Below are positions 20,571 through 53,692 of a stretch of DNA of 64,000 nt, piece after piece. Below the pieces are notes generated by a model that had not been told where the DNA came from, did no database searches, and saw only the letters and a list, made by a program, of their open reading frames with translations. Each line of letters starts with the position of its first letter. Within the stretch, counting starts at the first letter, position 1. This stretch comes from a virus (Duplodnaviria; Heunggongvirae; Uroviricota; Caudoviricetes): IMG/VR virus record IMGVR_UViG_3300031998_000043; one strand, given 5' to 3'. The translations under genes were made by a program, and so were the position numbers.

Positions 20571-20579
20571 TGTATATTA
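20571..20579 (+). promoter_or_regulatory. GTATATTAT promoter-like motif
   Basis: follows immediately after the terminator T-run; 37 nt upstream of the ATG. Confidence 0.55.
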
Positions 20580-20607
20580 TAAGAGGTACTGTTTAACTAG
20601 GAGACCT

Positions 20608-21405
20608 ATGCCTAAACCAATCTATTCGATGGCACATGCCGACATAATCGTTACTCATAAGTGCAATATGAAAGGAAATTGTCTGCCAACTTGTGCAGAC
20701 AAATTTGTGAATACCTCCGATAAAGAGATAGAGGTATCCACTGTAGAAAAATTTTTAGATTTATTTAGTAAGCATATTGCTAAACGGAAGACTGAGAATG
20801 TGATATTTTATGAACAGCCGCAGATTCTAGTTCTAGGCGGTGAGCCTACTTTGGTCGGATCTGAAAAGCTTATAGCCATAGCCGAAATAGCCAAGAAATA
20901 TGGCTTTGAGAGGATAATCTCATCTAATGGTTTAAACTTCAGGGTTCTTAAAGAGATTCTTCCATATTATGATTCTTTACAAATTACTCTGCAAACTTAT
21001 GGATCTAAAGCGGAGCTTCGCAGACTGCTGGATCTTGGATCAAAAAAGATTAATGTAAAGCTACGTTGCGATGTCAACCTTACTTTTGACGATCTAGTTA
21101 ATTTTATTGCAAGTACTAAAAGTTTTAAGCGCAGAAGTGTAGTTAGATATTGGGATTATAAGAATCATTGTTTTACAAATAAGGATCCGGCTATAGAAGA
21201 ATTTATGAATGCATTAGAATGGAAGCCATTTACAGACAGCATCAGTACTAGTATGTATGCAATGTTTGATGGAGTAAGATTCAAAAAAGAAACGGAAGAA
21301 ATCTTATCTGCCGAAATGCCAGACATTCCTAAACTGTATCCGAGTGGTGTGTACAACTGTACATGGAAAAATGAAGATTCTAATCCTTACTTTGGAGAAT
21401 TGTAA
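20608..21405 (+). CDS. putative radical-SAM-like protein with a non-canonical Cys cluster
   Basis: HKCNMKGNCLPTC (Cx5Cx3C) and a GGEPTL motif; RBS CTAGGAGACCT-ATG. Confidence 0.45.
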   Translation: MPKPIYSMAHADIIVTHKCNMKGNCLPTCADKFVNTSDKEIEVSTVEKFLDLFSKHIAKRKTENVIFYEQPQILVLGGEPTLVGSEKLIAIAEIAKKYGFERIISSNGLNFRVLKEILPYYDSLQITLQTYGSKAELRRLLDLGSKKINVKLRCDVNLTFDDLVNFIASTKSFKRRSVVRYWDYKNHCFTNKDPAIEEFMNALEWKPFTDSISTSMYAMFDGVRFKKETEEILSAEMPDIPKLYPSGVYNCTWKNEDSNPYFGEL

Positions 21406-21411
21406 ACTCTT

Positions 21412-21444
21412 AGGTCTACCTGAAGGTAGGCCTTTTATTTTTCG
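21412..21444 (+). terminator. rho-independent terminator (copy 2 of the repeated hairpin)
   Basis: AGGTCTACC-TGAA-GGTAGGCCT followed by TTTATTTTT. Confidence 0.7.
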
Positions 21445-21464
21445 TACTATGGGATAGCTTGGTT

Positions 21465-21473
21465 GTATATTAA
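21465..21473 (+). promoter_or_regulatory. GTATATTAA promoter-like motif
   Basis: 38 nt upstream of the ATG. Confidence 0.55.
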
Positions 21474-21502
21474 TTTATGCTTAACTAAATCAAGGAGGTA
21501 TC

Positions 21503-22207
21503 ATGGCAAGGCCATTTAAACCACTACCAAATTGGTATCGCGCTGATCTGACAATCGCGGAAATGTCAGAGATAAGCGGACACCAAAAAGGTGGTATTAG
21601 AAAATTTCTACAAAGAAGAAACCTTCCGTATATTAAAAAGAGAATTGATACGGAAGGAGAATTAGAGTGGTATGATCCTTCGTTGACTGTTGATGAAATG
21701 GCAGCGAAGTCGAAATATACTACTACACGCATTTCTTGGATTCTAAATAAAAGGAATCTTCCCTTCAAAGAAAAACCAAAGGAAATTCCAGAATGGTATA
21801 ACCCTAACTCTACTGCTAAAGAAATGGCTATCAGAGCTGGTATTGGGTTAAAGGCGGTATATATCATTCTCAATGCAAAAGGATTGGAATACAAAAAGAT
21901 TACCAAGAAACCCGGAGGCCCAAGACCACGCAAATTTACTATAGATGACTTCATGAAGTTTTATAATAAAAACCTGACTGTACAGGAAATGCATAAGATT
22001 TCTAAAATCCCTACTAGCAATATACGTGGATTTATATCAGTATACAAGCTTCCTTTTAAAAGGCTAGCAAGGAAGCTAATAATCGGAGATTGGTATAGGG
22101 AAGATCGAACAATCTCTGAAATGGCCTATTTAAGTGGGCTTGAACCCGGAACGGTCTCGACTCTACTATATCGGCGGAATTTGCCGCATAGCAGAAAGAA
22201 ATATTAG
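21503..22207 (+). CDS. protein built of five tandem HTH-like repeats of about 40 aa; putative DNA-binding protein
   Basis: five repeats of [ED]WYxxxLTxxEMAxxSG...RRNLP...KK; RBS AAGGAGGTATC-ATG. Confidence 0.55.
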   Translation: MARPFKPLPNWYRADLTIAEMSEISGHQKGGIRKFLQRRNLPYIKKRIDTEGELEWYDPSLTVDEMAAKSKYTTTRISWILNKRNLPFKEKPKEIPEWYNPNSTAKEMAIRAGIGLKAVYIILNAKGLEYKKITKKPGGPRPRKFTIDDFMKFYNKNLTVQEMHKISKIPTSNIRGFISVYKLPFKRLARKLIIGDWYREDRTISEMAYLSGLEPGTVSTLLYRRNLPHSRKKY

Positions 22208-22209
22208 AA

Positions 22210-22241
22210 AGGTCTACCTTCGGGTAGGCCTTTCTTTTTTT
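22210..22241 (+). terminator. rho-independent terminator (copy 3 of the repeated hairpin)
   Basis: AGGTCTACC-TTCG-GGTAGGCCT followed by TTCTTTTTTT. Confidence 0.7.
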
Positions 22242-22264
22242 CGTAAATTTTCTATGATCGCTGA

Positions 22265-22272
22265 TATATTAA
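22265..22272 (+). promoter_or_regulatory. TATATTAA promoter-like motif
   Basis: GATATATTAAAT; 56 nt upstream of the ATG. Confidence 0.45.
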
Positions 22273-22320
22273 ATACTGCGTAGTCTCATAATAACATTAA
22301 CATTCTCAAGGAGGTTCATT

Positions 22321-22599
22321 ATGAAACTTAAGAAAGCAATAGAATTTGGAAAACACTTTGATCAGATTCGTTCTTTCCTCTTTGAACACCATTTCTGGGA
22401 AATTACTGAACTGATTGCGATTGAAGGAGAATTTGACAAGAAAATCTCATTTAGAAGTAATAATGGCTGGTTTGTGCTAAATTGTAAATTAGACGGTAAT
22501 ACTGAAATTTACAAAATAGGGAGAATTTGCGAAACTGGCTATTTCGTAAAGTGTGGACTTGATACGATTTTCAGTGAACTAGGAAAATTGGAGAAATAA
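22321..22599 (+). CDS. hypothetical protein
   Basis: RBS AAGGAGG. Confidence 0.5.
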   Translation: MKLKKAIEFGKHFDQIRSFLFEHHFWEITELIAIEGEFDKKISFRSNNGWFVLNCKLDGNTEIYKIGRICETGYFVKCGLDTIFSELGKLEK

Positions 22600-22659
22600 A
22601 CCATGCATATTGATGACATTAAATGTGGAAAGGTAAAAGTGATCAAGCACTAAGTAATT

Positions 22660-22690
22660 GGCTCACCTTCGAGTGGGCCTTTCTTTTTTG
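22660..22690 (+). terminator. rho-independent terminator (divergent copy of the repeated hairpin)
   Basis: GGCTCAC-cttcga-GTGGGCC followed by TTTCTTTTTTG. Confidence 0.55.
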
Positions 22691-22696
22691 TTTTAT

Positions 22697-22703
22697 ATAT
22701 TAT
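22697..22703 (+). promoter_or_regulatory. TATATTA promoter-like motif
   Basis: TTTTATATATTATAG; 38 nt upstream of the ATG. Confidence 0.5.
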
Positions 22704-22734
22704 AGTAAGTACAATTTAATTCAAAGGAGTAATT

Positions 22735-23604
22735 ATGTCTCTTAAGGACACAGTAAAGTACAAGAAAGTTATCAAGGAGCTTAGAAGCCGTCATGATGCA
22801 AGTCATCCGATTATGTTCATGTGCGTCTGTGGATTTGGCGATGGCTGGCACTACGATCACATGACTGCCAAGGAGCGTCAGGAAGGAATCTCTAAAGAAA
22901 TGAAAGAGAATTTTTCCATTCCTGAAATCAAAGAATTTCTTGAAGATGAAGAAGATGCAAGACTGTTCTTCGGTTTAAATTGCAGTGCCAGCTATGAGCT
23001 TGATGGTATTAACCATTATCGTCATTGGTTTGGACAAAGTAACGAGCGTTGGAAGAGGTGGCTCGAAGTAGAAAAAATTATCGATGATGCTTGCCAGAAA
23101 ATCTATGGAGTACCGTGGGGAAAGCAAGAACAGAAAGTTCCTAATCTCATGGCTCCTATCGGAAAGTACAAGAAGATTCCTTCTACATTGCTTAACAAGA
23201 GGGAACATCTCGACATCCAAGAGCTGAAGACTGAGGAGATCATTCCGTATCTGATAAACCGTCCAGTCTACTGGGAAGATGAATTTGTCGGAACTGTGAT
23301 GAAAGTCGAAAACTTCTCTAAGTATCTATTTACTAGGAGAGTCAAAGATCCGACAGCAGAATGGGACGAGCCTGATGAATACGACAAGGACTTTTACGCA
23401 GACTGTATCACTAGCTTGTATCTTCATGAATATTATTCTGACGTAACAGACAAAAGTATTCTTGAATTCAAAGATTGGATCGGTCTGGTTATTCCTATGA
23501 TGAATTTCTCTGACATCATCGTTACAGATGATCGAATCATTCTGAAAGAAAATACAAGTATTAAGGTCAAGCAAATTGGTGCTGGATCCAACTGGATGTT
23601 CTAA
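22735..23604 (+). CDS. hypothetical protein
   Basis: 289 aa; RBS AAAGGAGTAATT-ATG. Confidence 0.55.
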   Translation: MSLKDTVKYKKVIKELRSRHDASHPIMFMCVCGFGDGWHYDHMTAKERQEGISKEMKENFSIPEIKEFLEDEEDARLFFGLNCSASYELDGINHYRHWFGQSNERWKRWLEVEKIIDDACQKIYGVPWGKQEQKVPNLMAPIGKYKKIPSTLLNKREHLDIQELKTEEIIPYLINRPVYWEDEFVGTVMKVENFSKYLFTRRVKDPTAEWDEPDEYDKDFYADCITSLYLHEYYSDVTDKSILEFKDWIGLVIPMMNFSDIIVTDDRIILKENTSIKVKQIGAGSNWMF

Positions 23605-23680
23605 GGAGCCATAATGAAACAGAAAACACACTCAGAATATATTGCAGAACTGAAAGAAGAACTCCGGAAGAGGAGAAATA

Positions 23681-23905
23681 ATGCGAGAATTGAAAAATGA
23701 AATTGGTGAAGAAATAAAGGAACTCTGTATATTTAATCCTCCTAGACTAATGTATTGCTGGAATGGACTAGAGACACCAGTAGAAAGAGATGTCACTGCG
23801 GTAGCTCTCTGTTATACTGGACTTGTGGCTATCACCTTTGAAAGAGAAATGTTTAATCATTGTGCCGCAATAGGAGAACCCATACAATTAAAGCAGGTAG
23901 AGTGA
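23681..23905 (+). CDS. hypothetical small protein
   Basis: 74 aa; a possible 28-aa upstream ORF at 23613..23699 overlaps its start. Confidence 0.45.
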   Translation: MRELKNEIGEEIKELCIFNPPRLMYCWNGLETPVERDVTAVALCYTGLVAITFEREMFNHCAAIGEPIQLKQVE

Positions 23906-23930
23906 CGGAATGTGCAAATATTACAAGATA

Positions 23931-23961
23931 AGGATTATGCATCCTTATCTTTTTTGTAAAA
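23931..23961 (+). terminator. rho-independent terminator
   Basis: AGATAAGGAT-tatgc-ATCCTTATCT followed by TTTTTTG. Confidence 0.6.
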
Positions 23962-23988
23962 CTGCTCATTGAATAACTGAGAGGATTT

Positions 23989-24753
23989 ATGAGAACATTG
24001 TATGTGGGCGACGTTCATGGCTGTAGTGTTGAGCTATTGATGTTGCTAAAGAAATTCAAGTTTAAGAAGGGCGAAGACAAGCTATACTTTACAGGTGATC
24101 TTATTGACAAGGGTTACAACAATATCCGTGTAATGGAGCTATTTAAGGAGTACGATGGTAAGTCTGTAATGGGCAACCATGAGCAGTACTTTATGGAAAT
24201 GTACGAAAAGCACAATACTAAGAAGTTTGCCGGATCTGTAGCCTCTAACGCTAGAAGAATGGACGGATCTCCTTCTGATGTGTTCCTGAATAAATTTCAT
24301 CTGAATGACTTTAATCAAGCTAGATCTATCTACGATGTTGTAAAGAAGTTTCCATTATACATGAAGACTCCTGATGGAATTCTTGTTCATGCTGGTATCG
24401 ATCCTAGAGAAAAGGACTACAAAAATACTGATAAGAGATTCTTTACAAAGATCAAGAGAATGCTTGACGGCAAGCCTTGGTTTGAAAACTATGAAGGTAA
24501 AACCAGAATCATCTTTGGACACTGGTCTGCCCAAAATTACATTCATAAGGATAATCTCATTTGCCTTGATACTGCTTGTGTGTATGGTTATCATCTGACT
24601 GGATGGTGTCCTGAAGAAGACAAGTTTTATCAAGTCAAGTCTACCATTAAGGAGAAATGGCATAGAAGCGAAGATAGACATGCCAAGAAGGTAGATAAAG
24701 ATGAGTATGACGCAAAGAATATCAAAGAAGATTTGATTGCATCGATGCTTTAA
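23989..24753 (+). CDS. PPP-family metallophosphoesterase (lambda-phosphatase / ApaH-like Ser/Thr phosphatase)
   Basis: GDVHG, GDLIDKG, GNHE and a later HAG/GHW motif, all in the canonical order. Confidence 0.8.
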   Translation: MRTLYVGDVHGCSVELLMLLKKFKFKKGEDKLYFTGDLIDKGYNNIRVMELFKEYDGKSVMGNHEQYFMEMYEKHNTKKFAGSVASNARRMDGSPSDVFLNKFHLNDFNQARSIYDVVKKFPLYMKTPDGILVHAGIDPREKDYKNTDKRFFTKIKRMLDGKPWFENYEGKTRIIFGHWSAQNYIHKDNLICLDTACVYGYHLTGWCPEEDKFYQVKSTIKEKWHRSEDRHAKKVDKDEYDAKNIKEDLIASML

Positions 24754-24761
24754 TCTAATAA

Positions 24762-24796
24762 AAGATAAGGACTTAGTTCTTATCTTTTATTTTTGT
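24762..24796 (+). terminator. rho-independent terminator
   Basis: AAGATAAGGAC-tta-GTTCTTATCTT followed by TTATTTTTG. Confidence 0.55.
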
Positions 24797-24803
24797 ATAT
24801 TAA
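24795..24803 (+). promoter_or_regulatory. GTATATTAA promoter-like motif
   Basis: 46 nt upstream of the ATG at 24841. Confidence 0.55.
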
Positions 24804-24840
24804 ACCATGTCTAACATTACAAATTGTAAAGGTGACTAAA

Positions 24841-25713
24841 ATGAAACCAGCAGAAAACCATTTAATAAATTTAATGGAGAAAGTTAATTATAAGAGCTTT
24901 AAGCTCATCAATGATTTGAAACGCATAGTTAGATTTAACAAAAAATTCAAGATTCCAGAAATAGAAACATTCCTGTCCGATCTTAATACGGCAATGTTTG
25001 ATTATATGTATCCGAATTATCTCAATCCACTATTTACGGCATTTCCGAAATTCTCCAGATACTGCATGGCTATTTACGTCATGTACCTTAAGGAGAGATA
25101 TTTTGAGAATTCCCTAGAAATATGTAGCGAAGTTATAGAATACAATTACAAGTATAACTCAATCCTTGTTGGTGGAGCTTGTACAGTTGAACAAATAAAA
25201 TCAAGTATGCAATTATTTGATGAAGGAAAATTAATTTTAGGAAGGCTTAGGAACTCCATTGATGACCTGTGTAGATTCTTGAGAGAGACTAAAAATGGAC
25301 GTTTTGATCATTTTGACTTGTTCAACCAAAAGGTCATAGACAGTTTTACTGAAGCTAGGCGAGATAAACTGGGAAATCCTAGAGAGGGATCATCTTGGAA
25401 TCAGCTGGTATTGTTCCTGTTTAAAGCCAAGACTGTACAAAATGCGAATCTGATTAATTCAATAAGGATGGCTTTTCAGGCTGGCAACCTATCCTTTTTA
25501 GAAGATCTTACTGTCTCAAAAATGGTGGACGTAGCTGTAGCAGAGATTCAGCGCAATCCTATGTTTTATCTCAATTATTATAAGAAGCAAGCTGCGGAAG
25601 ATGAAAGCCACATGGGTGAACCGGGTGACTGGTATCTTTGGCCTCATCCAACGATCTGGATTAGAGATAAGATTCTATCCGAGTTTGCTGACCTTGAAGA
25701 TGAAAATTATTAA
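24841..25713 (+). CDS. hypothetical protein
   Basis: RBS AAGGTGACTAAA-ATG; the TTG at 24793 in the ORF track lies within the promoter. Confidence 0.55.
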   Translation: MKPAENHLINLMEKVNYKSFKLINDLKRIVRFNKKFKIPEIETFLSDLNTAMFDYMYPNYLNPLFTAFPKFSRYCMAIYVMYLKERYFENSLEICSEVIEYNYKYNSILVGGACTVEQIKSSMQLFDEGKLILGRLRNSIDDLCRFLRETKNGRFDHFDLFNQKVIDSFTEARRDKLGNPREGSSWNQLVLFLFKAKTVQNANLINSIRMAFQAGNLSFLEDLTVSKMVDVAVAEIQRNPMFYLNYYKKQAAEDESHMGEPGDWYLWPHPTIWIRDKILSEFADLEDENY

Positions 25714-25721
25714 TTGTAGAT

Positions 25722-25755
25722 AAAGGAAAGAGTAATCTTTCCTTTTATTTTTTGT
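25722..25755 (+). terminator. rho-independent terminator
   Basis: AAAGGAAAGA-gtaa-TCTTTCCTTT followed by TATTTTTTG. Confidence 0.6.
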
Positions 25756-25774
25756 AGATTTCTGTATTCAAGAA

Positions 25775-25783
25775 GTATATTAA
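25775..25783 (+). promoter_or_regulatory. GTATATTAA promoter-like motif
   Basis: 43 nt upstream of the ATG. Confidence 0.55.
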
Positions 25784-25817
25784 TAGATAGTCATAAACAC
25801 AACAACAGGAGGTTAAT

Positions 25818-26312
25818 ATGGCTGATGAACCACACGAACGTAAGTTTCTTCTCTCCGAACTTGCGTTTAACGAAATTGTTCGTGATATGGAAGTGGAATT
25901 CCTTATTGCAATAGAGCAATTTCAGGAGAGATGCATGAAATTCAGAAAGGGATACTACCTTCTTCCGGAGAACATGAAATATGTGGAATTCTACCATGAA
26001 TATATCAGGATTGGTAAGTTTTTCCATATGACTGAGCTTACCGAAGGGGAGTGGGAGGCGGCTAAGGAGCTTGTAAAGCAACCTGAAACTGTCATCCTGC
26101 GAAAACGAAGGTATGTAGGACATAAGGATGGCTATGATTTGGACGTAGATCAGTTCTTTCATCCTACAAAATTGTTCATGCTGGAAGTTTCCAGTAAGGA
26201 CAAGCCCTTGAAGGATTTCATTCCATCATGGTCAGTGATCAAAGAAGTCACCGACGATCCTGCATACAAGAATGTGAATATTGCTGCGGGATCTCTTAAG
26301 GAAAGCCAGTGA
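25818..26312 (+). CDS. hypothetical protein
   Basis: RBS ACAGGAGGTTAAT-ATG. Confidence 0.55.
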   Translation: MADEPHERKFLLSELAFNEIVRDMEVEFLIAIEQFQERCMKFRKGYYLLPENMKYVEFYHEYIRIGKFFHMTELTEGEWEAAKELVKQPETVILRKRRYVGHKDGYDLDVDQFFHPTKLFMLEVSSKDKPLKDFIPSWSVIKEVTDDPAYKNVNIAAGSLKESQ

Positions 26313-26329
26313 CAGTGGCTTTTCTTTTC
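26302..26329 (+). terminator. weak terminator overlapping the stop codon
   Basis: AAAGCCA-gtgacag-TGGCTTT followed by TCTTTTC. Confidence 0.4.
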
Positions 26330-26330
26330 A

Positions 26331-26338
26331 CATATTAA
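26331..26338 (+). promoter_or_regulatory. CATATTAA promoter-like variant
   Basis: 37 nt upstream of the ATG at 26368. Confidence 0.4.
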
Positions 26339-26367
26339 TTCACAATAACTACAACAAAGGAGTTCTT

Positions 26368-26466
26368 ATGTACAAAATTCTCAACGCAGTTGCCATTAAT
26401 TTGGCTGTCATCATCACTTTGGACACCATAGAAAAAATCTGGCTGAAGTGGAGGAGACATGAATAA
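26368..26466 (+). CDS. 32-aa hydrophobic mini-protein
   Basis: RBS AAAGGAGTTCTT-ATG; MYKILNAVAINLAVIITLD. Confidence 0.35.
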   Translation: MYKILNAVAINLAVIITLDTIEKIWLKWRRHE

Positions 26467-26830
26467 TGAGATAAAGAGAGTCGTACTCTCTGATCACGCA
26501 AAAGATCGATGTATTGAAAGATGCATCGATACTTATATGTGTGATTATGCACGTAAGTACGGCAAAAGGATTAGAAGAGATTGTTATGTTCTCCACATGA
26601 AGGACATTCCGGATGAAGTGTTGTCAAAGATGACCCCAGAGTACAAAAAGAAGCTCGATAAGACGCTTCCGATATGCTCGATCTGGGCGATCAATGACGA
26701 CATGTACGTCTGCTTGACTGCATGGCGGATATTCGCTAATGCGACTAAGAAAAGGTTGAATTGGCGAAAAGGACAACCGGGTAAAAAGATTCATAGCTAC
26801 AAGGAATTAAGAAGGAAGAACGCTACATAG
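26459..26830 (+). CDS. hypothetical basic protein
   Basis: 123 aa; ATGA overlap. Confidence 0.5.
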   Translation: MNNEIKRVVLSDHAKDRCIERCIDTYMCDYARKYGKRIRRDCYVLHMKDIPDEVLSKMTPEYKKKLDKTLPICSIWAINDDMYVCLTAWRIFANATKKRLNWRKGQPGKKIHSYKELRRKNAT

Positions 26831-26847
26831 CGTTCTTTCTTTTTTAT
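26818..26847 (+). terminator. rho-independent terminator
   Basis: GAACGCTA-ca-TAGCGTTC followed by TTTCTTTTTT. Confidence 0.6.
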
Positions 26848-26852
26848 ATTAA
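26845..26852 (+). promoter_or_regulatory. TATATTAA promoter-like motif
   Basis: 42 nt upstream of the ATG. Confidence 0.5.
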
Positions 26853-26886
26853 GACTAGATTAACTCTTCACTGAAAGCGAGGTTTT

Positions 26887-27195
26887 ATGAAAGTAAAGAT
26901 CAAGGATATGGAGATTGAATGCACTGTTGATGAATTCGAGGAGCTTTATACTCGTGGAATTCTCGACAATAAAATGTCTCCCGCCGAAGCCCTAAAAGAA
27001 TTCATTATAGACAATCCTCCAAAGGATAAGTCTATCACACCCATAAAGTCTTTTCCGGGTGTAGTTGCTGTATATGGTTGTCAGATGCCTGAAGCCGTAG
27101 CTTTGTATGGATGCCAAGTGAGCGATCCTAACATATTCCGTACAGAGATCACTTCTACATCTGGTATTAAGACAGAGAAAGACGATTATCAATAA
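26887..27195 (+). CDS. hypothetical protein
   Basis: 102 aa; RBS GCGAGG. Confidence 0.5.
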   Translation: MKVKIKDMEIECTVDEFEELYTRGILDNKMSPAEALKEFIIDNPPKDKSITPIKSFPGVVAVYGCQMPEAVALYGCQVSDPNIFRTEITSTSGIKTEKDDYQ

Positions 27196-27226
27196 TAGAA
27201 AGAGCTTTTGCTCTTTCTATTTTTTG
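27196..27226 (+). terminator. rho-independent terminator
   Basis: TAGAAAGAGC-TTTT-GCTCTTTCTA followed by TTTTTTG. Confidence 0.6.
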
Positions 27227-27247
27227 TAATTTTTATGAGTCTGTAGA

Positions 27248-27255
27248 TATATTAA
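27248..27255 (+). promoter_or_regulatory. TATATTAA promoter-like motif
   Basis: GATATATTAAAT; 43 nt upstream of the ATG. Confidence 0.5.
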
Positions 27256-27290
27256 ATAGTAGCTTAACCTTATAACAACGGAGGTCTAAT

Positions 27291-27494
27291 ATGGTAGGCG
27301 ACGTCAGATATATCCGATTCACGGACACAGAAGGAGAAATTCATATCGTTAAGTTTGATGCGATCAAACAGGCTATCAAGTGGTCAAAAATTGACGAATA
27401 CGAATTTGATATCGGTGACAGTGAAGATGGAAAAATCAAGATTACTGAGGATACGTTCAACTATTTCCAGAAGCTCGCTGGCTTCGATAACTAA
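27291..27494 (+). CDS. hypothetical small protein
   Basis: RBS ACGGAGGTCTAAT-ATG. Confidence 0.5.
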   Translation: MVGDVRYIRFTDTEGEIHIVKFDAIKQAIKWSKIDEYEFDIGDSEDGKIKITEDTFNYFQKLAGFDN

Positions 27495-27496
27495 AG

Positions 27497-27524
27497 GAAA
27501 GCCCAATAGGGCTTTCTTTTTTTA
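27497..27524 (+). terminator. rho-independent terminator
   Basis: GAAAGCCC-AATA-GGGCTTTC followed by TTTTTTT. Confidence 0.6.
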
Positions 27525-27529
27525 TAAGA

Positions 27530-27538
27530 GTATATTAA
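27530..27538 (+). promoter_or_regulatory. GTATATTAA promoter-like motif
   Basis: 34-43 nt upstream of the start. Confidence 0.55.
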
Positions 27539-27563
27539 GAAAAGCCTTTGAATTTTAACATGG

Positions 27564-28001
27564 ATGGTTACTATGAAAACTACTGACGGAAAAGAATTAG
27601 AAGAAGCCGTAGTTGGCGAAGGTTCAATGCCCAATAATGAGACATTGGAAAAGCTCATGGAACAAGGTAAAGCTGTATATACCGGAATCTATGAGTTCTT
27701 TTGCGATTATGTCTACAAACAGGAAAAAGACATTTCTAGAATGACAAAAGAGGAATTCAATCAAGTTGTATTTACATTCATGACGGAACTTCCACATACA
27801 CTGAACAAGCACTACATCGAGATTTACAAAGCATTCTTGGAACCATATCTTAAGAGCGATGAAGACCTTAATATGATCTACACATATATAGGGAATCTTT
27901 ATCTTCAGCCTTTAGTTATCAAGGTAGCTACCGAGTTTATTGAAAAGAGACAGATTGATTTTCGAAAACCTAATAATGGTTTCAGAGAAGTTCTGAACTA
28001 A
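27564..28001 (+). CDS. hypothetical protein
   Basis: 145 aa; the start could be 27564 or 27573. Confidence 0.5.
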   Translation: MVTMKTTDGKELEEAVVGEGSMPNNETLEKLMEQGKAVYTGIYEFFCDYVYKQEKDISRMTKEEFNQVVFTFMTELPHTLNKHYIEIYKAFLEPYLKSDEDLNMIYTYIGNLYLQPLVIKVATEFIEKRQIDFRKPNNGFREVLN

Positions 28002-28019
28002 ACTAAGGTAGAGGGCAAG

Positions 28020-28214
28020 ATGATACAGAATAAAGTGCATGTTATTGTTGACGAATTCCTAGATCCTCTAGGAGAAAATCCAACATACGAATTCCATATT
28101 GGATATACGCAGCTTGATAAAGCCAAGGAAGAGCTGCCGAAGCACGCCAGCATTGCCAAGAAAAAGGCTGGATACAGTACTTCATTTATCCAAGAAGTCA
28201 CGATCTTTGAATAG
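28020..28214 (+). CDS. hypothetical small protein
   Basis: 64 aa; RBS GGTAGAGGGCAAG-ATG. Confidence 0.45.
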   Translation: MIQNKVHVIVDEFLDPLGENPTYEFHIGYTQLDKAKEELPKHASIAKKKAGYSTSFIQEVTIFE

Positions 28215-28236
28215 ACCTAGACTAATCATCAAAGTG

Positions 28237-28265
28237 GGGAAGACGCAAGTCTTCCTCATTTTTTA
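28237..28265 (+). terminator. rho-independent terminator
   Basis: GGGAAGAC-GCAA-GTCTTCCT followed by CATTTTTTAT. Confidence 0.5.
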
Positions 28266-28267
28266 TT

Positions 28268-28276
28268 GTATATTAT
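28268..28276 (+). promoter_or_regulatory. GTATATTAT promoter-like motif
   Basis: 33 nt upstream of the ATG at 28301. Confidence 0.55.
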
Positions 28277-28300
28277 AAAGTGTCTTTTAATGGAGTTATC

Positions 28301-28711
28301 ATGAACCATATAAACCTTACTGACAATCCAAGATATGAAGCCTTGAAAGAACAAGAGAAAAATACTATGCTCCGGGATATGCCTTTAGACTGTTTGCATA
28401 TCAAGGACATGTGGGAGAGAGACGGACAATGGCCAGCTCCTAAGCTTCCTGCAGCATTCTCTTATTATGTTTCGAATCTGAAGTTTGATAATGAATATAT
28501 AGGTGTTCATTACTACTTCTGTGTCTCTGGTATACTGTGTGACTTTGAACAGTGGTACAATGATGAAGATGCAGAAGTTGATAAGTTCGTAAATCTCTAC
28601 AATGCTTTGATCCATAAGGATCCACCAGAGATCATCGAAAGTGATATCGAAAACATCTATAACTGGGCTGAACGACTTCAGCATAAAGTTTGCCTGATGG
28701 CTGCGGATTGA
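28301..28711 (+). CDS. hypothetical protein
   Basis: RBS GGAG 7 nt upstream; the ATG at 28280 in the ORF track lies inside the RBS. Confidence 0.5.
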   Translation: MNHINLTDNPRYEALKEQEKNTMLRDMPLDCLHIKDMWERDGQWPAPKLPAAFSYYVSNLKFDNEYIGVHYYFCVSGILCDFEQWYNDEDAEVDKFVNLYNALIHKDPPEIIESDIENIYNWAERLQHKVCLMAAD

Positions 28712-28926
28712 TGATGGACGATACTTGCTATAAATGTGGTAAACCGGCAGTATGCAAGAATCTCATAGCACGAGTTGGACATATGACTACAGTTTCGAAT
28801 AGTGATCATAGCGATATAAAGCATGAGATCATTCAGACTTGGGTTGATACTCCAATGTGCGAATCTTGTCAAAATGCTCTTGTAGAATACCTTAATGGAG
28901 AACAAAATGAAATACGCGGTTATTGA
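28711..28926 (+). CDS. zinc-ribbon mini-protein
   Basis: TGATG overlap; CYKCGK...CESCQ. Confidence 0.45.
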   Translation: MMDDTCYKCGKPAVCKNLIARVGHMTTVSNSDHSDIKHEIIQTWVDTPMCESCQNALVEYLNGEQNEIRGY

Positions 28927-28996
28927 ATTTCTCAAGAATTTCTTTCTCATCGGAGTAGGATTCTTTCTTGGGAAAGTGACAACATTCGGAGGATAA

Positions 28997-29248
28997 ATGA
29001 AAGCCTTCATATATAAACTCATTCCAGCTATAATCGTAGGGCTGGTTGCCATGAACACAATCTTTATTATCATAGCCCTTAGTGGATGCAACGGTGCAGA
29101 TGCCGCTGAAAGTCGCCATTATCAACTTTGGATCGACGATAAGCTTATCTGCACTGGTATGTACTACTATGTGTCTAGTGGAATATACAGATTCAACTGT
29201 GATGATGGTAGTATAGTTGTGGGATTGCACAATGCGATCATAAAATAA
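28997..29248 (+). CDS. small secreted or membrane protein
   Basis: RBS GGAGGATAA-ATG; N-terminal hydrophobic segment with a possible lipobox-like ALSGCNG. Confidence 0.45.
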   Translation: MKAFIYKLIPAIIVGLVAMNTIFIIIALSGCNGADAAESRHYQLWIDDKLICTGMYYYVSSGIYRFNCDDGSIVVGLHNAIIK

Positions 29249-29258
29249 AGGAAAACAC

Positions 29259-30185
29259 ATGCAGAAAACATCAACAAAACAATTCCAGCAGAGTGACATA
29301 CGCAGTTGCTTTAGGCTGGACTTTTCTGGCCCGTCTTTCAGACTGTTCTACAAAGACAATAGTGGAACATATCACGAAATTGAAAACAAGGCAGATCTTA
29401 TTCATGAGATCTGCTTCTCTAGGGATCCCAATACCGAAGGTCATCCCTTGTATATCTACCACAGGTTCTCCCATCCCAAATACGGGATCATTATCGACAA
29501 GACTAAGGATAATGATATCTATGTGGAATTCCAGAAGCACTTCTTCCGTCTTGAAAAGGGTTTGATGGAATGCTTTTCTCTCAATGCTGGCTGTTCTATC
29601 ACGATCCGAGAAAAGTTTGGCAAATCGGATAACTACGAGACATACCGAGTTCTGAACAATTACACTATGAGCAAGTTTGTTTATAGAGTGATTGATGGCG
29701 AATGTAAGTTGTCCGACAAACTTGTTGAAGATAAATGGTACAAGTACAAGATTGGAGTCTTCGAATCTGAAGAACATCGCCCTGAGTACAGTGACTACCG
29801 TTCAGCTGTGTTCTACGAGAAGGCCAAGATCGAAGGTGAAGACTGCACTCCTATGGCCAATTATGTTTGTCTTACCAGTGCACAGAGGGCACAGATCGAC
29901 GAACTCGTTAAGAATTTCAAGGAAAAGCTTGACGAGATTGGCGCAAAGGTCTATCTTGACGTTGAGTATGACAAACTTGCATTTATCTCCAGCGATGCAA
30001 AGCTTCCTGAAAACACGACATATATGATTCGTGATTACAGTGATCCGGATGCAGAGAATGAAGTGTCTATTCCCGTGAGTGCCTTCTACGTACCTGATGA
30101 CAGGTTTATGACATATTTGAATGACTGTACTGATATTAGGGCAGTCTATCAGAAACCTCCTCAGGCTGTCACTGAAGAAAAGTAA
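29259..30185 (+). CDS. hypothetical protein
   Basis: 308 aa; RBS AAAGGAAAACAC-ATG. Confidence 0.55.
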   Translation: MQKTSTKQFQQSDIRSCFRLDFSGPSFRLFYKDNSGTYHEIENKADLIHEICFSRDPNTEGHPLYIYHRFSHPKYGIIIDKTKDNDIYVEFQKHFFRLEKGLMECFSLNAGCSITIREKFGKSDNYETYRVLNNYTMSKFVYRVIDGECKLSDKLVEDKWYKYKIGVFESEEHRPEYSDYRSAVFYEKAKIEGEDCTPMANYVCLTSAQRAQIDELVKNFKEKLDEIGAKVYLDVEYDKLAFISSDAKLPENTTYMIRDYSDPDAENEVSIPVSAFYVPDDRFMTYLNDCTDIRAVYQKPPQAVTEEK

Positions 30186-30202
30186 TCCCTAAACATCAAA
30201 CA

Positions 30203-30235
30203 GAAACCGTTACGAATGTAGCGGTTTCTTTTTTA
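30203..30235 (+). terminator. rho-independent terminator
   Basis: GAAACCGTTAC-GAAT-GTAGCGGTTTC followed by TTTTTT. Confidence 0.65.
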
Positions 30236-30241
30236 TATTAA
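30234..30241 (+). promoter_or_regulatory. TATATTAA promoter-like motif
   Basis: 33 nt upstream of the ATG. Confidence 0.5.
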
Positions 30242-30266
30242 TCAATGACTTCTATACGAGGTAATA

Positions 30267-30656
30267 ATGGAAACATCTGAAGAACTGGAAGAGCCGAAAG
30301 AAGATTTCGTAGCTCCGCACTTAGATACTGATATAGACAGGATCGAAGAGTCATTCAAGTATACAGATGCGCAAGGAAAAGAAGTGGAAGTGACAGTAGA
30401 GTTTCTTCCAAACGATTGCGAGAAAGCCTCAAATAACCTAGCTACTCTTGTACAGCCGATTACTGGAATCAGAGTCGGAGACAGAGAGAAGGTCAGATCC
30501 ATGATTAACACAATCCTAGGTGATTACAAGTGCTGCTTCTCAATAAGGATTCTGCCTAGAGAAGTGGAACTAAAGTTCACAGATTGTGAGGAAGTCATTG
30601 GAAAAATGATCACGGAGTTTGTACAGGTTCTCAATGAAAATCCTAGTAAAAACTAA
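30267..30656 (+). CDS. hypothetical protein
   Basis: RBS ACGAGGTAATA-ATG. Confidence 0.5.
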   Translation: METSEELEEPKEDFVAPHLDTDIDRIEESFKYTDAQGKEVEVTVEFLPNDCEKASNNLATLVQPITGIRVGDREKVRSMINTILGDYKCCFSIRILPREVELKFTDCEEVIGKMITEFVQVLNENPSKN

Positions 30657-30900
30657 AGGTGGAAAGGCTATCACTGGAGAAATGACATTAGTATGTCTGA
30701 ATCCAGATGGTGGTGGCATGATTTGCCTATCTTACCATAAAAACTTTGACATTAGTTTTGAAAATATTGAAGAGATCTATATTATACAGAATAATAGGCT
30801 CAAAGCCCTTAATCTTGAAAATATGGATTGCAAAGATATCTTTGACCAATTATCTTTGTATTATTTCCGAGATAGAGGCGAATACAACTTCACCATTTAA
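30634..30900 (+). CDS. hypothetical protein
   Basis: internal ATG (MKILVKTKGG) overlapping the previous stop. Confidence 0.45.
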   Translation: MKILVKTKGGKAITGEMTLVCLNPDGGGMICLSYHKNFDISFENIEEIYIIQNNRLKALNLENMDCKDIFDQLSLYYFRDRGEYNFTI

Positions 30901-30912
30901 CAAAGGAAAGAA

Positions 30913-31191
30913 ATGGAAGCAGGAACGTTCGGTTGGGCTCTCGAACAGCTTAAGGCTGGTAAGAAAGTCCAGAGAAAAGAATGGAACGGAAAGGGTATGT
31001 TTTTGACTCTTCAACCCGGATCCATCGTCAAAGGTGAAATGATGCGTAATGAACCCGCTAGAGAGTTCTATACTGGAAAAGATTGTGTGATCCAGCCACA
31101 CATTGATATGAAGGCAGCTGATGATAGTTATACTGTCGGCTGGACGGCTAGCCAAGTTGATATGCTTGCTAGCGATTGGCAGCTTGCCTAA
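30913..31191 (+). CDS. DUF2829/Tad2-like mini-protein (candidate Thoeris anti-defence sponge)
   Basis: WALEQLKAGKKVQRKEWNGKGMFL ... GWTASQVDMLASDW matches my recollection of the DUF2829 pattern; RBS AAAGGAAAGAA-ATG. Confidence 0.5.
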   Translation: MEAGTFGWALEQLKAGKKVQRKEWNGKGMFLTLQPGSIVKGEMMRNEPAREFYTGKDCVIQPHIDMKAADDSYTVGWTASQVDMLASDWQLA

Positions 31192-31211
31192 TAACAAAAA
31201 GGAAACAAACA

Positions 31212-32831
31212 ATGGAACAAATCATAAATGCCCAAAACATCGGCATCGCCGCTGGCGTTGCTATCGTCATCATTCTGGCCATCGTATTTATCCTTGGCTA
31301 TGTTAAGGCACCTCCTGACAAGGTGTTTATCATTTCTGGTTTCCGTAAGGAGCCGAAATTCGTTACCGGAACTTCTGCGATCCGTATTCCGTTCCTTCAG
31401 CAGAAAGATGAACTGACACTCGCTCTTATTAAAGTTAACGTTGTGACTGATGAAGACATTCCGACTTCGGAATATATTAACATCAGGGTGGATTCTAATG
31501 TTAACGTGAAGATTGATAAGACAAAGCTTGCAATTGCAGCCCAGCACTTCTTAAACGCAAATGAAGGTCAAATATCTAAATTCGTGTGTGATGTTCTTCA
31601 GGGCAACCTTCGTGAAATTGTTGGTCAGATGAAACTCGAAGACATGATTAAAGACCGCACTGAGTTTAACAAGCGAGTCACTGAAAACGTCAAACCCGAC
31701 CTTGCCGCTATGGGTCTTGAACTTGTATCTTTCAATGTTCAGAACTTCTCCGACAAGAATAGTGTGATTGTGAACATGGGTATTGACAACGTAGAAACCA
31801 TTAGAAAGACTGCCGAAATTGCAAAGGCCAATGCCCAGCGTGATATTGCTGTTGCTAAGGCCAAGGCAGACCTCGAAGAAAATGATGCCCGTGTTAAGGC
31901 TGATACCACGATCGCTGAACGCAACAATGCTCTCGAAATTAAGCAGCATGAACTCAAGCAAGCAGAACAGACAAAGAAAGCCGTTGCTGACTCTGCATAT
32001 AAGATTGAGCTTGCGAACCAGCAGAAGGACATCAATGTGGCTAATGCTAAGGCTGAAACGGCAAGACAAGAACAGCTTATTCTCGTGCGTGAGAAGGAAG
32101 TTGAAGTTAAGGAAAAAGAACTTAACGCCAATGTCATCAAGCCCGCAGAAGCCGAAAAGACTGCTGTCATTCTTCAAGCTGAAGCTGCCCGTGAAGCTGA
32201 AATCATCAATGCTGATGCTAACCTTAAGAAGACCGAGAAGAATGCTGAAGCTAATCTCATCAAGGAAACTAAAGATGCAGAAGCCCAGCTTATCAAGGAA
32301 ACCAAAGACGCAGAAGCCGAACTTATCAAGAATCAGAAGGCTTCTGAAGCCAAGCGTTACAATGATGAACAGACCGCTATCGGTACTGAAGCTCTAGCCA
32401 AGGCAAATCTTGTCAAGGCTAAGAACGAAGCTGAAGGTATCGAGGCTAACGGTAAGGCTACTGCATCTGCCATTGAAGCTAAGGGTAAGGCTGAAGCTGA
32501 AGCTCTTGACAAGAAGGCAGATGCTATGAAGAAGTATGGCGATGCTGCTATCATGGATATGCAGCTTCAGGTATCCAAAGCTCTTGTTGAAAAGATGCCT
32601 GAGATCGCTGCTGCCGTTGCTGCTCCGTTTGCTAAGGTCGGTAAGATCGAAATGTATGGCTCTGGTAATACCAAGATGCTTGCAGAAGATATTACCAGCA
32701 TTATCAATCAGGTAAGCGGTGGCTTGTCTTCTACCCTTGGGATTGATGGCAAGATGTTCTTGAGCTCTGCTCTTGCAAATATTGCTACTAAGGGCGCAAC
32801 CTCTACAGCATCTGCACCTGCAAAGAAATAA
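31212..32831 (+). CDS. flotillin / SPFH (band-7) family membrane protein
   Basis: N-terminal transmembrane segment IGIAAGVAIVIILAIVFILGY; SPFH core; long Glu/Ala/Lys coiled-coil (EAxxEAE repeats); GC-enriched codon usage. Confidence 0.8.
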   Translation: MEQIINAQNIGIAAGVAIVIILAIVFILGYVKAPPDKVFIISGFRKEPKFVTGTSAIRIPFLQQKDELTLALIKVNVVTDEDIPTSEYINIRVDSNVNVKIDKTKLAIAAQHFLNANEGQISKFVCDVLQGNLREIVGQMKLEDMIKDRTEFNKRVTENVKPDLAAMGLELVSFNVQNFSDKNSVIVNMGIDNVETIRKTAEIAKANAQRDIAVAKAKADLEENDARVKADTTIAERNNALEIKQHELKQAEQTKKAVADSAYKIELANQQKDINVANAKAETARQEQLILVREKEVEVKEKELNANVIKPAEAEKTAVILQAEAAREAEIINADANLKKTEKNAEANLIKETKDAEAQLIKETKDAEAELIKNQKASEAKRYNDEQTAIGTEALAKANLVKAKNEAEGIEANGKATASAIEAKGKAEAEALDKKADAMKKYGDAAIMDMQLQVSKALVEKMPEIAAAVAAPFAKVGKIEMYGSGNTKMLAEDITSIINQVSGGLSSTLGIDGKMFLSSALANIATKGATSTASAPAKK

Positions 32832-32870
32832 AAGAATCTCCTTTGTCGCTAATAACGACGGTTAAAGTAA

Positions 32871-32913
32871 AGAGAGGGGCCGATGCCTTTTGTGCCCCTC
32901 TCTTTTTTTTTTC
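32871..32913 (+). terminator. rho-independent terminator
   Basis: AGAGAGGGGC-13 nt loop-GCCCCTCTCT followed by ten T residues. Confidence 0.65.
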
Positions 32914-32935
32914 GTAGGTTTCTGTGATCCGAGTA

Positions 32936-32943
32936 TATATTAA
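32936..32943 (+). promoter_or_regulatory. TATATTAA promoter-like motif
   Basis: GAGTATATATTAAATA; 41 nt upstream of the ATG. Confidence 0.5.
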
Positions 32944-32976
32944 ATAAAGCGTATATCATATCAACAAGGAGGCATC

Positions 32977-33579
32977 ATGATTTACGAGTACAAAATGACG
33001 GAAGAAAATGCCGATAAAATTATCAAGCTAATCGAAAATCATAAAATCCATCGGATAGAATATACCGAAGGATCTGCTATGCCATACTGTTCAGTTCGTC
33101 TGGGCAGACATGGCGAAATCTACTTGACGGGAAATTTGTGGACAGGGATTCCTTCTCTTATGAATGCTATAGGAGATCTTCTTGACAGATTCCACGTATT
33201 TAAGGTTGAAAGAATTAACTATATTGATTTCTTCGACTTTGAATCTGGTGGAAACAAGATATTCCTTAGGGAAGACGAGAAATTTCTGCCAAAGAATAAA
33301 ATAGAGACCAAAAGGCTCTATTATAGGACGTATGGCGAAATTGTAATGATGTATAGGGCATCGAGAATAGACCTCTCACAGAAGAAGTCTAGATATAAAG
33401 GGTACCCTAAACACGACCTTGTCGGTAAGTTCGAAGCACGTATCGAAATGCTTAAAGCAGAGATAAAGTGCAGAGAGCTTAAGGACGAGTACGAAAAAAG
33501 AAAAAGCGGAGATATGGCTGAATATAGAAAAAAGATGGCCAAGATCCGTCGTACAAGAAATAAAAGGGTGGCAGCTTAA
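32977..33579 (+). CDS. hypothetical protein with a basic C-terminus
   Basis: RBS AAGGAGGCATC-ATG. Confidence 0.55.
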   Translation: MIYEYKMTEENADKIIKLIENHKIHRIEYTEGSAMPYCSVRLGRHGEIYLTGNLWTGIPSLMNAIGDLLDRFHVFKVERINYIDFFDFESGGNKIFLREDEKFLPKNKIETKRLYYRTYGEIVMMYRASRIDLSQKKSRYKGYPKHDLVGKFEARIEMLKAEIKCRELKDEYEKRKSGDMAEYRKKMAKIRRTRNKRVAA

Positions 33580-33597
33580 GCTGCTTCCCTTTTTTCT
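33564..33597 (+). terminator. rho-independent terminator overlapping the stop codon
   Basis: palindrome GCAGCTTAAGCTGC flanked by AAGGG/CCCTT, then TTTTTTC. Confidence 0.6.
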
Positions 33598-33610
33598 ATT
33601 TTTAGAAAAA

Positions 33611-33618
33611 TATATTAA
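33611..33618 (+). promoter_or_regulatory. TATATTAA promoter-like motif
   Basis: 44 nt upstream of the ATG. Confidence 0.5.
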
Positions 33619-34070: not shown

Positions 34071-34292
34071 ATGAATGCTATCAAGCAGATAATTAAGGAT
34101 GGATTATTCTATCTTGCATCAATGCTAATGGTTATTGCTATTGCATGTATTCTTGGAGTTCCTATCTTTATTGGCCTTATAATCGATTCTATTCCATTGA
34201 TTCTATTTGGTATTTTGTTCTTTGGTGCATTTGGAGGAGCAATAGCCAAGTATGGAATTGATAGATACGAAAAAAGCCAACGGAAAAAATAA
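34071..34292 (+). CDS. small membrane protein with two transmembrane helices
   Basis: hydrophobic segments LFYLASMLMVIAIACILGVPIFIGLII and ILFGILFFGAFGGAIA. Confidence 0.5.
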   Translation: MNAIKQIIKDGLFYLASMLMVIAIACILGVPIFIGLIIDSIPLILFGILFFGAFGGAIAKYGIDRYEKSQRKK

Positions 34293-36757: not shown

Positions 36758-36989
36758 TTTCTTTTTCCTTATATTTTAGGTGAATTTCAGAACCAAAACA
36801 TAATGTTATCTTGGCTCTTAGACAAAATACCTATTTGTGCTAGGATCCTAGGCATTTTCAATGAATAGTTAGATGGGGGTAGAATTTTGCGAGCAAAAAT
36901 TGTAAGTTTTTTGCGTATCTAGATGTGCAACGAAAAGTATTGATTTATCGAATGAACTTTTAATAAATACGATAACCAAGGAGCCCATC

Positions 36990-43212: not shown

Positions 43213-43295
43213 GTTAACTAACCATTGAAATACGGGTCGCGACCGAAGAAACCTGTAATTCTCTAAACGTTTAACTTACAAACAAGGATATATAT
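43213..43295 (+). promoter_or_regulatory. conserved leader or regulatory element (copy 1) with palindromes GGTCGCGACC and AAACGTTT
   Basis: about 85% identical to 44409..44492, located upstream of the duplicated gene. Confidence 0.5.
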
Positions 43296-53630: not shown

Positions 53631-53692
53631 TAGAAGACTCCTTTCTATTATTGAGTTCTGCCCTAACTAGTTATTGAACCAAAGAGGTAATT

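Follow-up and report, generated by a model that had tools for sequence, protein, structure and literature searches.

A 64-kb stretch of phage DNA (IMG/VR record IMGVR_UViG_3300031998_000043; hereafter the window) encodes a 92-aa protein of the Tad2-like (DUF2829) family and, 20 nt downstream, a flotillin of the FloT type. Both open reading frames (ORFs) lie where the first-pass annotation had placed them. They close a unit of four genes that is set between two strong terminators, and its sequence favours co-transcription of all four. The observation was confirmed, and its interpretation was partly supported. We favour, with a probability of about 0.6, the reading that this is an early unit of a jumbo phage related to AR9 and PBS1, in which a Tad2-like sponge and a flotillin would act independently, their adjacency being a gene order inherited in one lineage and no dedicated two-component system.

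An alignment-based scan of IMG/VR (a scan with the single protein gave nothing) found flotillin relatives on at least 283 contigs, mostly 80-424 kb long. The 91 flotillin loci analysed formed 29 groups at ≥85% identity, which span at least three unrelated phage types: the AR9-like family, a T4-like phage (Portal_T4) and phages of ~145 kb (Thg1, PhoH, gyrase). Tad2-like and flotillin genes shared an operon in three of the 29 groups (the window phage with its variant L012 from another sample; L013 with L014; and L020), all of one lineage. No Tad2-like gene lay within 7 kb in 25 groups, and in one unrelated group a divergent Tad2-like gene (34 bits) lay 5.7 kb from the flotillin in two of 22 loci. 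Among 80 other Tad2-like loci in IMG/VR, mostly on 20-65-kb contigs, none had a flotillin within 5 kb. Because the pairing is restricted to three flotillin groups of one lineage and missing from the 80 other Tad2-like loci, it is not a general module. It is lineage-specific synteny from one evolutionary event, not a recurrent two-gene system. The adjacency that the first-pass annotation had called a novel pairing with a putative sponge is therefore real, but it is confined to this lineage.

Within the lineage, L013 and L014 show the order 129-aa-like gene, 80-aa gene, Tad2-like gene (80% identity), 174-aa gene and flotillin (54%), with spacers of 27-30 nt; a truncated 364-aa gene of L013 was identified as flotillin by tblastn. 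L020, on a 235-kb contig, has the same order, with an N-terminally extended Tad2-like protein of 188 aa and a 179-aa insert. Two of the three lineage representatives thus carry an extra gene (174 or 179 aa) between the Tad2-like gene and the flotillin. The capsid protein of L020 is 97% identical to that of the window phage. In the sister phages L002-5 and L019 (capsid identity 83-86%), the flotillin follows an unrelated 207-aa gene near the capsid gene, and Tad2 is lacking. Every sampled member of the window phage family has a flotillin, always within ~3 kb of the capsid gene.

Several points weigh against independent action of the two proteins or against the functions that we ascribe to them. 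One apparent operon has been kept in the lineage despite divergence (flotillin 50-54% identical, 129-aa gene 61-62%), and such retention would also be expected from a functional link. L013 (275-940) and L020 (2061-2726) encode a 221-aa PspA/IM30-like protein (23 bits, cut-off 33.9) 3 kb upstream of the Tad2-like gene, a sign that the region may have to do with membrane stress. The literature searched reported no function for any phage flotillin, and the residue that hydrogen-bonds adenine in the solved family member HgmTad2, Thr92, is Val in the 92-aa protein.

Some of these points enter the rather doubtful alternative that the genes form a functional counter-defence pair. Here the sponge would lower an immune signal and the flotillin would protect or repair the membrane, two steps of one host response, helped in relatives by the PspA-like protein and directed at the membrane-disrupting effectors that are common in Toll/interleukin-1 receptor (TIR), cyclic-oligonucleotide-based antiphage signaling (CBASS) and Pycsar systems. 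The 20-nt spacer within one early-type operon, a link that persists in L013/L014 and L020 at ~50% flotillin identity, and the PspA_IM30-like gene near the pair in L013 and L020 all fit this alternative, as does the link between bacterial SPFH proteins and PspA-mediated membrane protection, in which an SPFH protein tethers PspA to the membrane (PMC8581546). The genuine but divergent Tad2-like gene 5.7 kb from an unrelated flotillin can be added, together with counter-defence-type genes within a few kb of other phage flotillins, namely Gad2 in L006 and genes for NAD synthase, nicotinamidase and nicotinate phosphoribosyltransferase (NAPRTase) in four to six groups. However, the association stems from one event in three of 29 groups of a single family, in which the window phage and L020 have nearly the same capsid protein, and the sister phages keep the flotillin without Tad2. 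No flotillin accompanies the 80 other Tad2-like loci, and the flotillin matched no PADLOC or anti-defence family. One DUF2829 gene placed at random in a 200-kb genome would fall within 7 kb of a given gene in ~7% of cases, and the observed rate is no higher. The PspA-like match is below the Pfam cut-off, and a search of the window for a homologue of that gene found none.

The PspA/IM30-like gene of L013 and L020 is followed by several genes for membrane or secreted proteins. Its proximity to an SPFH gene recalls the pspA-ydjGHI (samGHI) operon of Bacillus subtilis, in which YdjI links PspA to the membrane, and this likeness suggests a membrane-stress function. The two arrangements differ in that the phage match is below cut-off, 3 kb away in a separate unit and absent from the window, and in that YdjI is a cytosolic SPFH protein, whereas the window protein is a FloT-type flotillin. 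The Gad2 (anti-Gabija) Pfam match of L006 is at 1793-2602 of a 19-kb Joint Genome Institute contig, 3.4 kb from the flotillin. Genes for NAD synthase, isochorismatase-type nicotinamidase and NAPRTase occur ≤7 kb from the flotillin in four to six other phage groups (loci L002/L004, L007-9, L026, L039, L054-55 and L097), and the window has an NAD synthase gene (15740-16498, +; PF02540, 110 bits). These NAD-salvage genes may replenish NAD+ against NAD-depleting defence.

Family and predicted ligand of the Tad2-like protein

The 92-aa protein matched PF11195 (Tad2-like) with 90.9 bits (E = 7.5e-26, cut-off 25) over positions 2-72 of the 73 in the profile, and also matched PHROG 1048 and 872. Its matches to solved chains (AcrIIA7/HgmTad2, ModTad2, SptTad2 and SPO1 Tad2) had E values from 5.6e-17 to 5e-9. 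An AlphaFold2 (AF2) monomer model built with 57 homologues reached a predicted local distance difference test score (pLDDT) of 94.4 and showed an N-terminal helix, an antiparallel β-sheet and a C-terminal helix. In a Foldseek search of the PDB, ranks 1-24 were all Tad2 structures and the next match had E > 1; template-modelling (TM) scores were 0.84 for SptTad2, 0.80-0.82 for HgmTad2, 0.77 for ModTad2 and 0.73 for SPO1 Tad2. The first-pass family assignment thus held. The protein shares with the Tad2/DUF2829 family its Pfam domain, the predicted fold of helix α1 and an antiparallel sheet, and its encoding by a phage; it is of the same size class as SPO1 Tad2 and ModTad2. It differs from the solved members in having only 34-39% identity to them, and its oligomeric state and ligand are here predicted from sequence. 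The gene extends a large family by one unremarkable member. Compared with L012, which served for all ratios of non-synonymous to synonymous polymorphism (pN/pS), it had 10 synonymous and three non-synonymous differences (pN/pS 0.07).

In HgmTad2, glyco-cyclic ADP-ribose (gcADPR) is contacted by W21, N22, G23, M76, A78, T82, V84, W87, L88, S90, T92 and D93 (PMC10680739), which align with W24, N25, G26, M66, A68, S72, T74, W77, T78, S80, V82 and D83 of the 92-aa protein. Nine of the 12 contacts were counted as identical. The identities include W24-N25-G26, M66, A68, W77, S80 and D83, so that two features of the gcADPR pocket, its W-N-G loop and its S..D motif, are kept; the substitutions are T82 to Ser, V84 to Thr, L88 to Thr and T92 to Val. 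The last of these would remove a side-chain hydrogen bond to adenine, and the ligand may therefore differ from that of HgmTad2. Val at this site is common to 15 of 57 close relatives (Val or Ile in 16). Tad2 homologues vary in ligand from member to member, with 3'cADPR, His-ADPR, N7-cADPR, cyclic dinucleotides and cUMP/cCMP among those bound (PMC12393519). Because of this variation and of the Val at the adenine-contacting position, the case for gcADPR binding is weaker than had been claimed. The most cautious prediction is that the protein forms a tetramer and acts as a sponge for a TIR signal of the ADP-ribose (ADPR) type, its exact ligand left unspecified; gcADPR as the specific ligand is plausible.

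A second pocket is not expected. HgmTad2-type dual sponges have a β2-β5 insertion of 35-41 residues together with R31, D34, L36, S47, F70 and N85, whereas the insertion of the 92-aa protein has 27 residues, and in the cyclic-dinucleotide pocket R31 is replaced by Gln, D34 by Ser, F70 by Ile and N85 by Val. The short insertion predicts that cyclic dinucleotides would not be bound there. In the mechanism that we favour, the protein would form a tetramer that sequesters an ADPR-derived signal of a host TIR (Thoeris-type) defence, and the effector would never be switched on; the early timing implied by the promoter motif of the unit would suit such an anti-defence role.

It is very improbable that the protein is instead an anti-CRISPR of the AcrIIA7 type, which binds tracrRNA or structured RNA in the groove of the tetramer (PMC13133391) and is not a nucleotide sponge. 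AcrIIA7 is its best PDB sequence match (9kzr, E = 5.6e-17), and K58, K66 and K71 of AcrIIA7, mutation of which abolishes RNA binding, align with its K14, K22 and K27; the 92-aa protein also has no inhibitory N-terminal head domain. The equivalents of these three lysines, however, are conserved throughout the Tad2 family and do not discriminate, K93 of AcrIIA7 stands opposite a gap, and the counterpart of R101 is Glu51. Most of the gcADPR pocket is intact, and the anti-CRISPR activity is itself disputed: HgmTad2/AcrIIA7 did not inhibit Cas9 in an independent study (PMC10680739).

The Tad2-like domain of L020 (5633-6199) carries an N-terminal extension of ~95 residues without a family match, a layout that recalls the head domain that masks AcrIIA7.

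Architecture, constraint and possible role of the flotillin

The flotillin is 539 aa long, one residue short of the 540 first reported. It matched PF01145 (Band_7) with 71.8 bits (cut-off 23.6) over residues 34-210 and PF15975 (Flot) with 33 bits (cut-off 27) over residues 408-489. Human flotillin-1 and flotillin-2 matched with E values from 1e-44 to 1e-46 (7.5e-46 for flotillin-1), and flotillin-1 was alignable over ~400 residues (34-336 and 399-498). The match to the NCBIfam FloT profile NF058507 reached 223 bits, under the equivalog cut-off of 700; on this score the protein is FloT-like and not an equivalog of B. subtilis FloT. Hydropathy (Kyte-Doolittle, 19-residue window) peaked at 3.2 at residues 10-28 (NIGIAAGVAIVIILAIVFILGYV). 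The protein contains 29 EA or AE dipeptides, and residues 211-440 are 22% Ala and 30% Glu plus Lys. The hydrophobic N-terminal helix, SPFH domain and EA-rich coiled coil that the first-pass annotation had described were all recovered. Together with the C-terminal flotillin domain, they are the parts found in FloT (YuaG) of B. subtilis, in the FloT-type flotillins of gut Clostridia and in eukaryotic flotillin-1 and -2.

The claim that the gene is codon-optimised survived in part. Its codon adaptation index, with weights derived from the capsid gene, was 0.495 and ranked fifth of 66 genes; only the capsid gene, two late paralogues and the tail sheath gene scored higher. The codon signal is nevertheless far weaker than that of the structural genes. 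Its GC content at third codon positions (GC3) was 0.43, compared with 0.61 for the capsid gene and a median of ~0.37. Overall GC was 0.447, with 0.417 expected from amino-acid composition and 0.390 for the window; about half of the GC excess is therefore due to the Ala- and Glu-rich composition. In addition, the unit that contains the flotillin is preceded by the early-type motif TATATTAA and not by the structural-class motif AACTAnnnATTGAA. The codon usage suggests that the protein is well expressed.

Compared with L012, the flotillin had 51 synonymous and five non-synonymous differences (pN/pS 0.03). Both the flotillin and the Tad2-like gene are under purifying selection, and very low pN/pS in these two and in the 129-aa gene shows that they are not dead captured fragments. 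The nearest relatives of the flotillin were phage copies (50-61% identity), closer than any bacterial one, and phage flotillins clustered together in a neighbour-joining tree that is rough, without support values, and used qualitatively. Chromosomal flotillins of gut and rumen Clostridia, Fibrobacter, Treponema and others were 40-48% identical, and the nearest of these sit amid housekeeping genes. No NfeD partner of the kind found in the bacterial yuaF-floT operon was present in the phage loci or in the nearest bacterial loci; in this the window copy differs from B. subtilis FloT and agrees with its nearest bacterial homologues. The possibility that the gene is recently captured, non-functional host DNA, which had been named as a refuting condition, is scarcely credible. 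The bacterial matches make an ultimate cellular origin likely, but the gene is full length with all domains, differs from L012 mostly at synonymous sites, is kept in every sampled member of the phage family, has its nearest relatives among other phage flotillins, and has its own ribosome-binding site in a promoter-to-terminator unit.

Unlike cellular flotillins, the window copy is a gene of a lytic-type jumbo phage under a phage promoter, and its alleles are exchanged or mosaic between close relatives. The window phage and L020 share 97% of capsid residues but only 50% of flotillin residues, and against L006 identity is 86% in the SPFH domain but 39-60% elsewhere in the protein. Mosaic alleles, taken with the very low short-range pN/pS, are better explained by cassette exchange than by relaxed constraint.

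In cells, flotillins assemble into oligomeric domes attached to the membrane, and they organise or stabilise membrane proteins (PMC11260169, PMC13000311, PMC11222466), and such assemblies are known for the human proteins (PMC11260169, PMC13000311). By analogy, the phage flotillin would use its hydrophobic N-terminal segment to insert in the cytoplasmic membrane of the host and would oligomerise through the SPFH domain and the EA-rich coiled coil into dome- or patch-like scaffolds. We infer that these would form early in infection, and they would re-organise or stabilise the membrane over the prolonged infection cycle that a large phage goes through. The protein may stabilise the membrane, counter membrane-targeting defence effectors, control lysis proteins or cage FtsH; the genomic context offers hints, none of them decisive, because they differ from group to group.

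On balance it is unlikely that the flotillin serves the phage's own membrane programme and not defence, whether by timing or confining holin and lysis proteins, caging host FtsH as HflK/C does, excluding superinfection, or anchoring replication or assembly. A 73-aa holin-like protein with two or three hydrophobic helices and a basic tail is encoded 1.2 kb downstream (34071-34292, +) and an 83-aa lipoprotein with a lipobox (LSGC) 2 kb upstream (28997-29248, +), both calls being made by eye from the sequence. In other groups, the flotillin is followed at a distance of 2.3 kb by an Amidase_2-SLH endolysin (the 145-kb phages) or has, directly upstream, a 263-aa protein with two transmembrane segments and a protein of the LemA family at 80 bits (two groups: L025, 5142-6507, and the L041 group). 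Constant proximity to the capsid gene in the window phage family and capsid-like codon use, which suggests abundance, also agree with such a programme. The promoter, however, is of the early and not the structural-gene class, and the neighbours differ in every phage group, leaving no consistent lysis partner.

The transcription unit and the phage

The first-pass annotation had described a promoter-to-terminator unit from 30234. Its boundaries hold, with a hairpin on either side and the promoter motif at 30234, but it comprises four genes (129 aa, 88 aa, Tad2-like and flotillin) and not just the two (Table 1). The spacer between the last two genes was unstructured when folded. PADLOC defence models matched no gene of the unit or its neighbours.

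Table 1. Positions of the four-gene unit, its domains and its signals in the window
Feature	Position	Strand	Basis
Intrinsic terminator of the preceding unit (upstream boundary)	30202..30229	+	12-bp stem then U-run; -16.8 kcal/mol, z -6.4
Early-type promoter motif TATATTAA of the four-gene unit	30234..30241	+	Recurrent TATATTAW motif after terminators
129-aa lineage-specific protein, gene 1	30267..30656	+	ORF; few homologues
88-aa protein, gene 2	30634..30900	+	ORF; overlaps end of gene 1 by 23 nt
Tad2-like (DUF2829) protein, 92 aa, predicted homotetrameric sponge	30913..31191 (TAA 31189-31191)	+	PF11195, PDB matches, AF2 fold
FloT-type flotillin, 539 aa	31212..32831 (ATG 31212)	+	Band_7, Flot, FloT profile, human flotillin matches
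Flotillin membrane anchor	residues ~10-31, nt 31239-31304	+	Hydropathy
Flotillin SPFH domain	residues 34-210, nt 31311-31841	+	PF01145 Band_7
Flotillin EA-rich coiled coil	residues ~211-440	+	Composition
Flotillin Flot domain	residues 408-489, nt 32433-32678	+	PF15975
Intrinsic terminator closing the unit	32869..32912	+	GC-rich hairpin (32869-32905) then U10; -26.3 kcal/mol, z -5.4; 0/200 shuffles as stable
AACTAnnnATTGAA motif	36857-36870	-	Upstream of capsid, terminase and two codon-biased genes (with next row)
AACTAnnnATTGAA motif	43216-43229, 44412-44425, 53665-53678, 1578-1591	+

The 129-aa protein had no match in Pfam, PHROG, NCBIfam or PADLOC. It had four homologues in 5.8 billion proteins and, in a profile search, two cluster representatives in 1.84 billion. 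The copies in L013 and L020 are at the same position and 61-62% identical. There were 14 synonymous and no non-synonymous differences from L012 (pN/pS 0); the AF2 model was unusable (pLDDT 46). The 88-aa ORF is also annotated as a gene on the metagenomic contig of 134 kb (ENA ERZ27257204 k141_4853316) that contains the window. Its protein likewise matched no family in Pfam, PHROG, NCBIfam or PADLOC, apart from a sub-threshold Pfam match (YxiG, 17 bits).

The pattern TATATTAW had 20 matches in the window, with ~10 expected, and none of 100 shuffles reached 20. Fourteen copies of TATATTA(A/T), including that of the four-gene unit, lie just 3' of terminators between 20.5 and 33.6 kb (for example, on the + strand, at 20573, 21466, 22265, 22696, 24796, 25776, 26845, 27248, 27531, 28269, 30234, 32936 and 33611). 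This region (20573-33618, +) is a series of short units in which a hairpin terminator and a T-run are followed by the motif ~25-35 nt before the start codon. Internal copies at 30778 and 31473, candidates for internal promoters, have no terminator ahead, and chance alone would supply about ten copies in the window. The motif, in the form TATATTAA or TATATTA(A/T), corresponds to the core of the AR9 early promoter as defined by experiment, AAATATATATTAT-(6N)-G (PMC5312081), and short units with a hairpin terminator followed by AT-rich TATATTA(T/A) are likewise a feature of the AR9/PBS1 early units. Because neither Pfam nor PHROGs recognised an RNA polymerase subunit among the large ORFs of the window, it is the similarity of the motif to AR9 that points to an early promoter. 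By this analogy we infer early expression of the four genes.

The second motif, AACTAnnnATTGAA, precedes the capsid gene, the terminase gene, other late genes and two codon-biased genes of 356 and 358 aa. It had nine matches with at most one mismatch, against 3.4 expected, which is modest statistical support, and is probably a late promoter class. The two codon-biased genes (43296-44366 and 44493-45569, +) are paralogues without a family match, with near-identical upstream regions in which the palindrome GGGTCGCGACC occurs. In capsid-like codon adaptation they rank second and third, and they probably encode abundant virion proteins.

Among the products of the window phage are a major capsid protein of 613 aa, a tail sheath of 1432 aa, a large terminase and a DNA polymerase. 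Its capsid protein and a 937-aa protein both matched the same 21 cultured jumbo phages (AR9, PBS1, Staphylococcus S6-like, Listeria LPJP1 and Yersinia phages), at 21-30% identity. By these proteins the phage is an uncultured jumbo myovirus and a distant relative of AR9 and PBS1, with which it has a homologous capsid protein and one further protein in common; the isolates of the AR9 group differ from it in lacking a flotillin. Its host is probably a gut or rumen Firmicute. A search of INPHARED found no DNA nearly identical to the window.

Several other genes of the window were recorded. A 602-aa protein (1799-3607, +) has a Stealth CR2 domain (114 bits), which is unusual for a phage; the family includes capsular polysaccharide phosphotransferases. 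A 281-aa AAA_21/AAA_15 ATPase of the AbiEii/OLD-like family (18740-19585, +; 53.7 bits) lies amid early-type genes. In the tail sheath gene (58688-62986, +), sheath profiles match only the last ~285 residues of 1432, and the gene is spanned by a 1335-aa antisense ORF that is probably a by-product of codon bias. A 200-aa gene (32977-33579, +) just 3' of the flotillin terminator is absent from L012, which is otherwise 91-100% identical to the window phage, and marks a recent insertion or deletion.

Biological meaning

Flotillins are classic cellular membrane scaffolds, and their function in bacteria is still debated. The Tad2-like gene enlarges an already large and ligand-diverse sponge family by one member, the pocket of which is a variant (Thr to Val). 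Of the two genes the flotillin is the better lead, since the survey points to full-length copies, kept by purifying selection, in hundreds of large uncultured phages. FloT-type flotillins are common in such phages of gut and rumen, and our search of the literature found no description of a phage flotillin. INPHARED held no cultured phage with a convincing flotillin, and the trait is at present visible only in metagenomes. The window flotillin is full length, is under purifying selection and combines an early-type promoter with capsid-like codon usage.

More ambitious, and in our estimate improbable, is the proposal that phage FloT-type flotillins are widespread early effectors of the host membrane and that here one forms a two-layer counter-defence with a co-transcribed Tad2-like sponge. 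If this were true, the sponge would remove the TIR signal, the flotillin would shield or repair the membrane against pore-forming or membrane-disrupting abortive-infection effectors, and an arms race would explain why near-identical phages exchange flotillin alleles like cassettes.

A virus with its own flotillin is a natural gain-of-function experiment on what such a scaffold does to a bacterial membrane, and it may uncover a layer of phage takeover or counter-defence that acts at the membrane.

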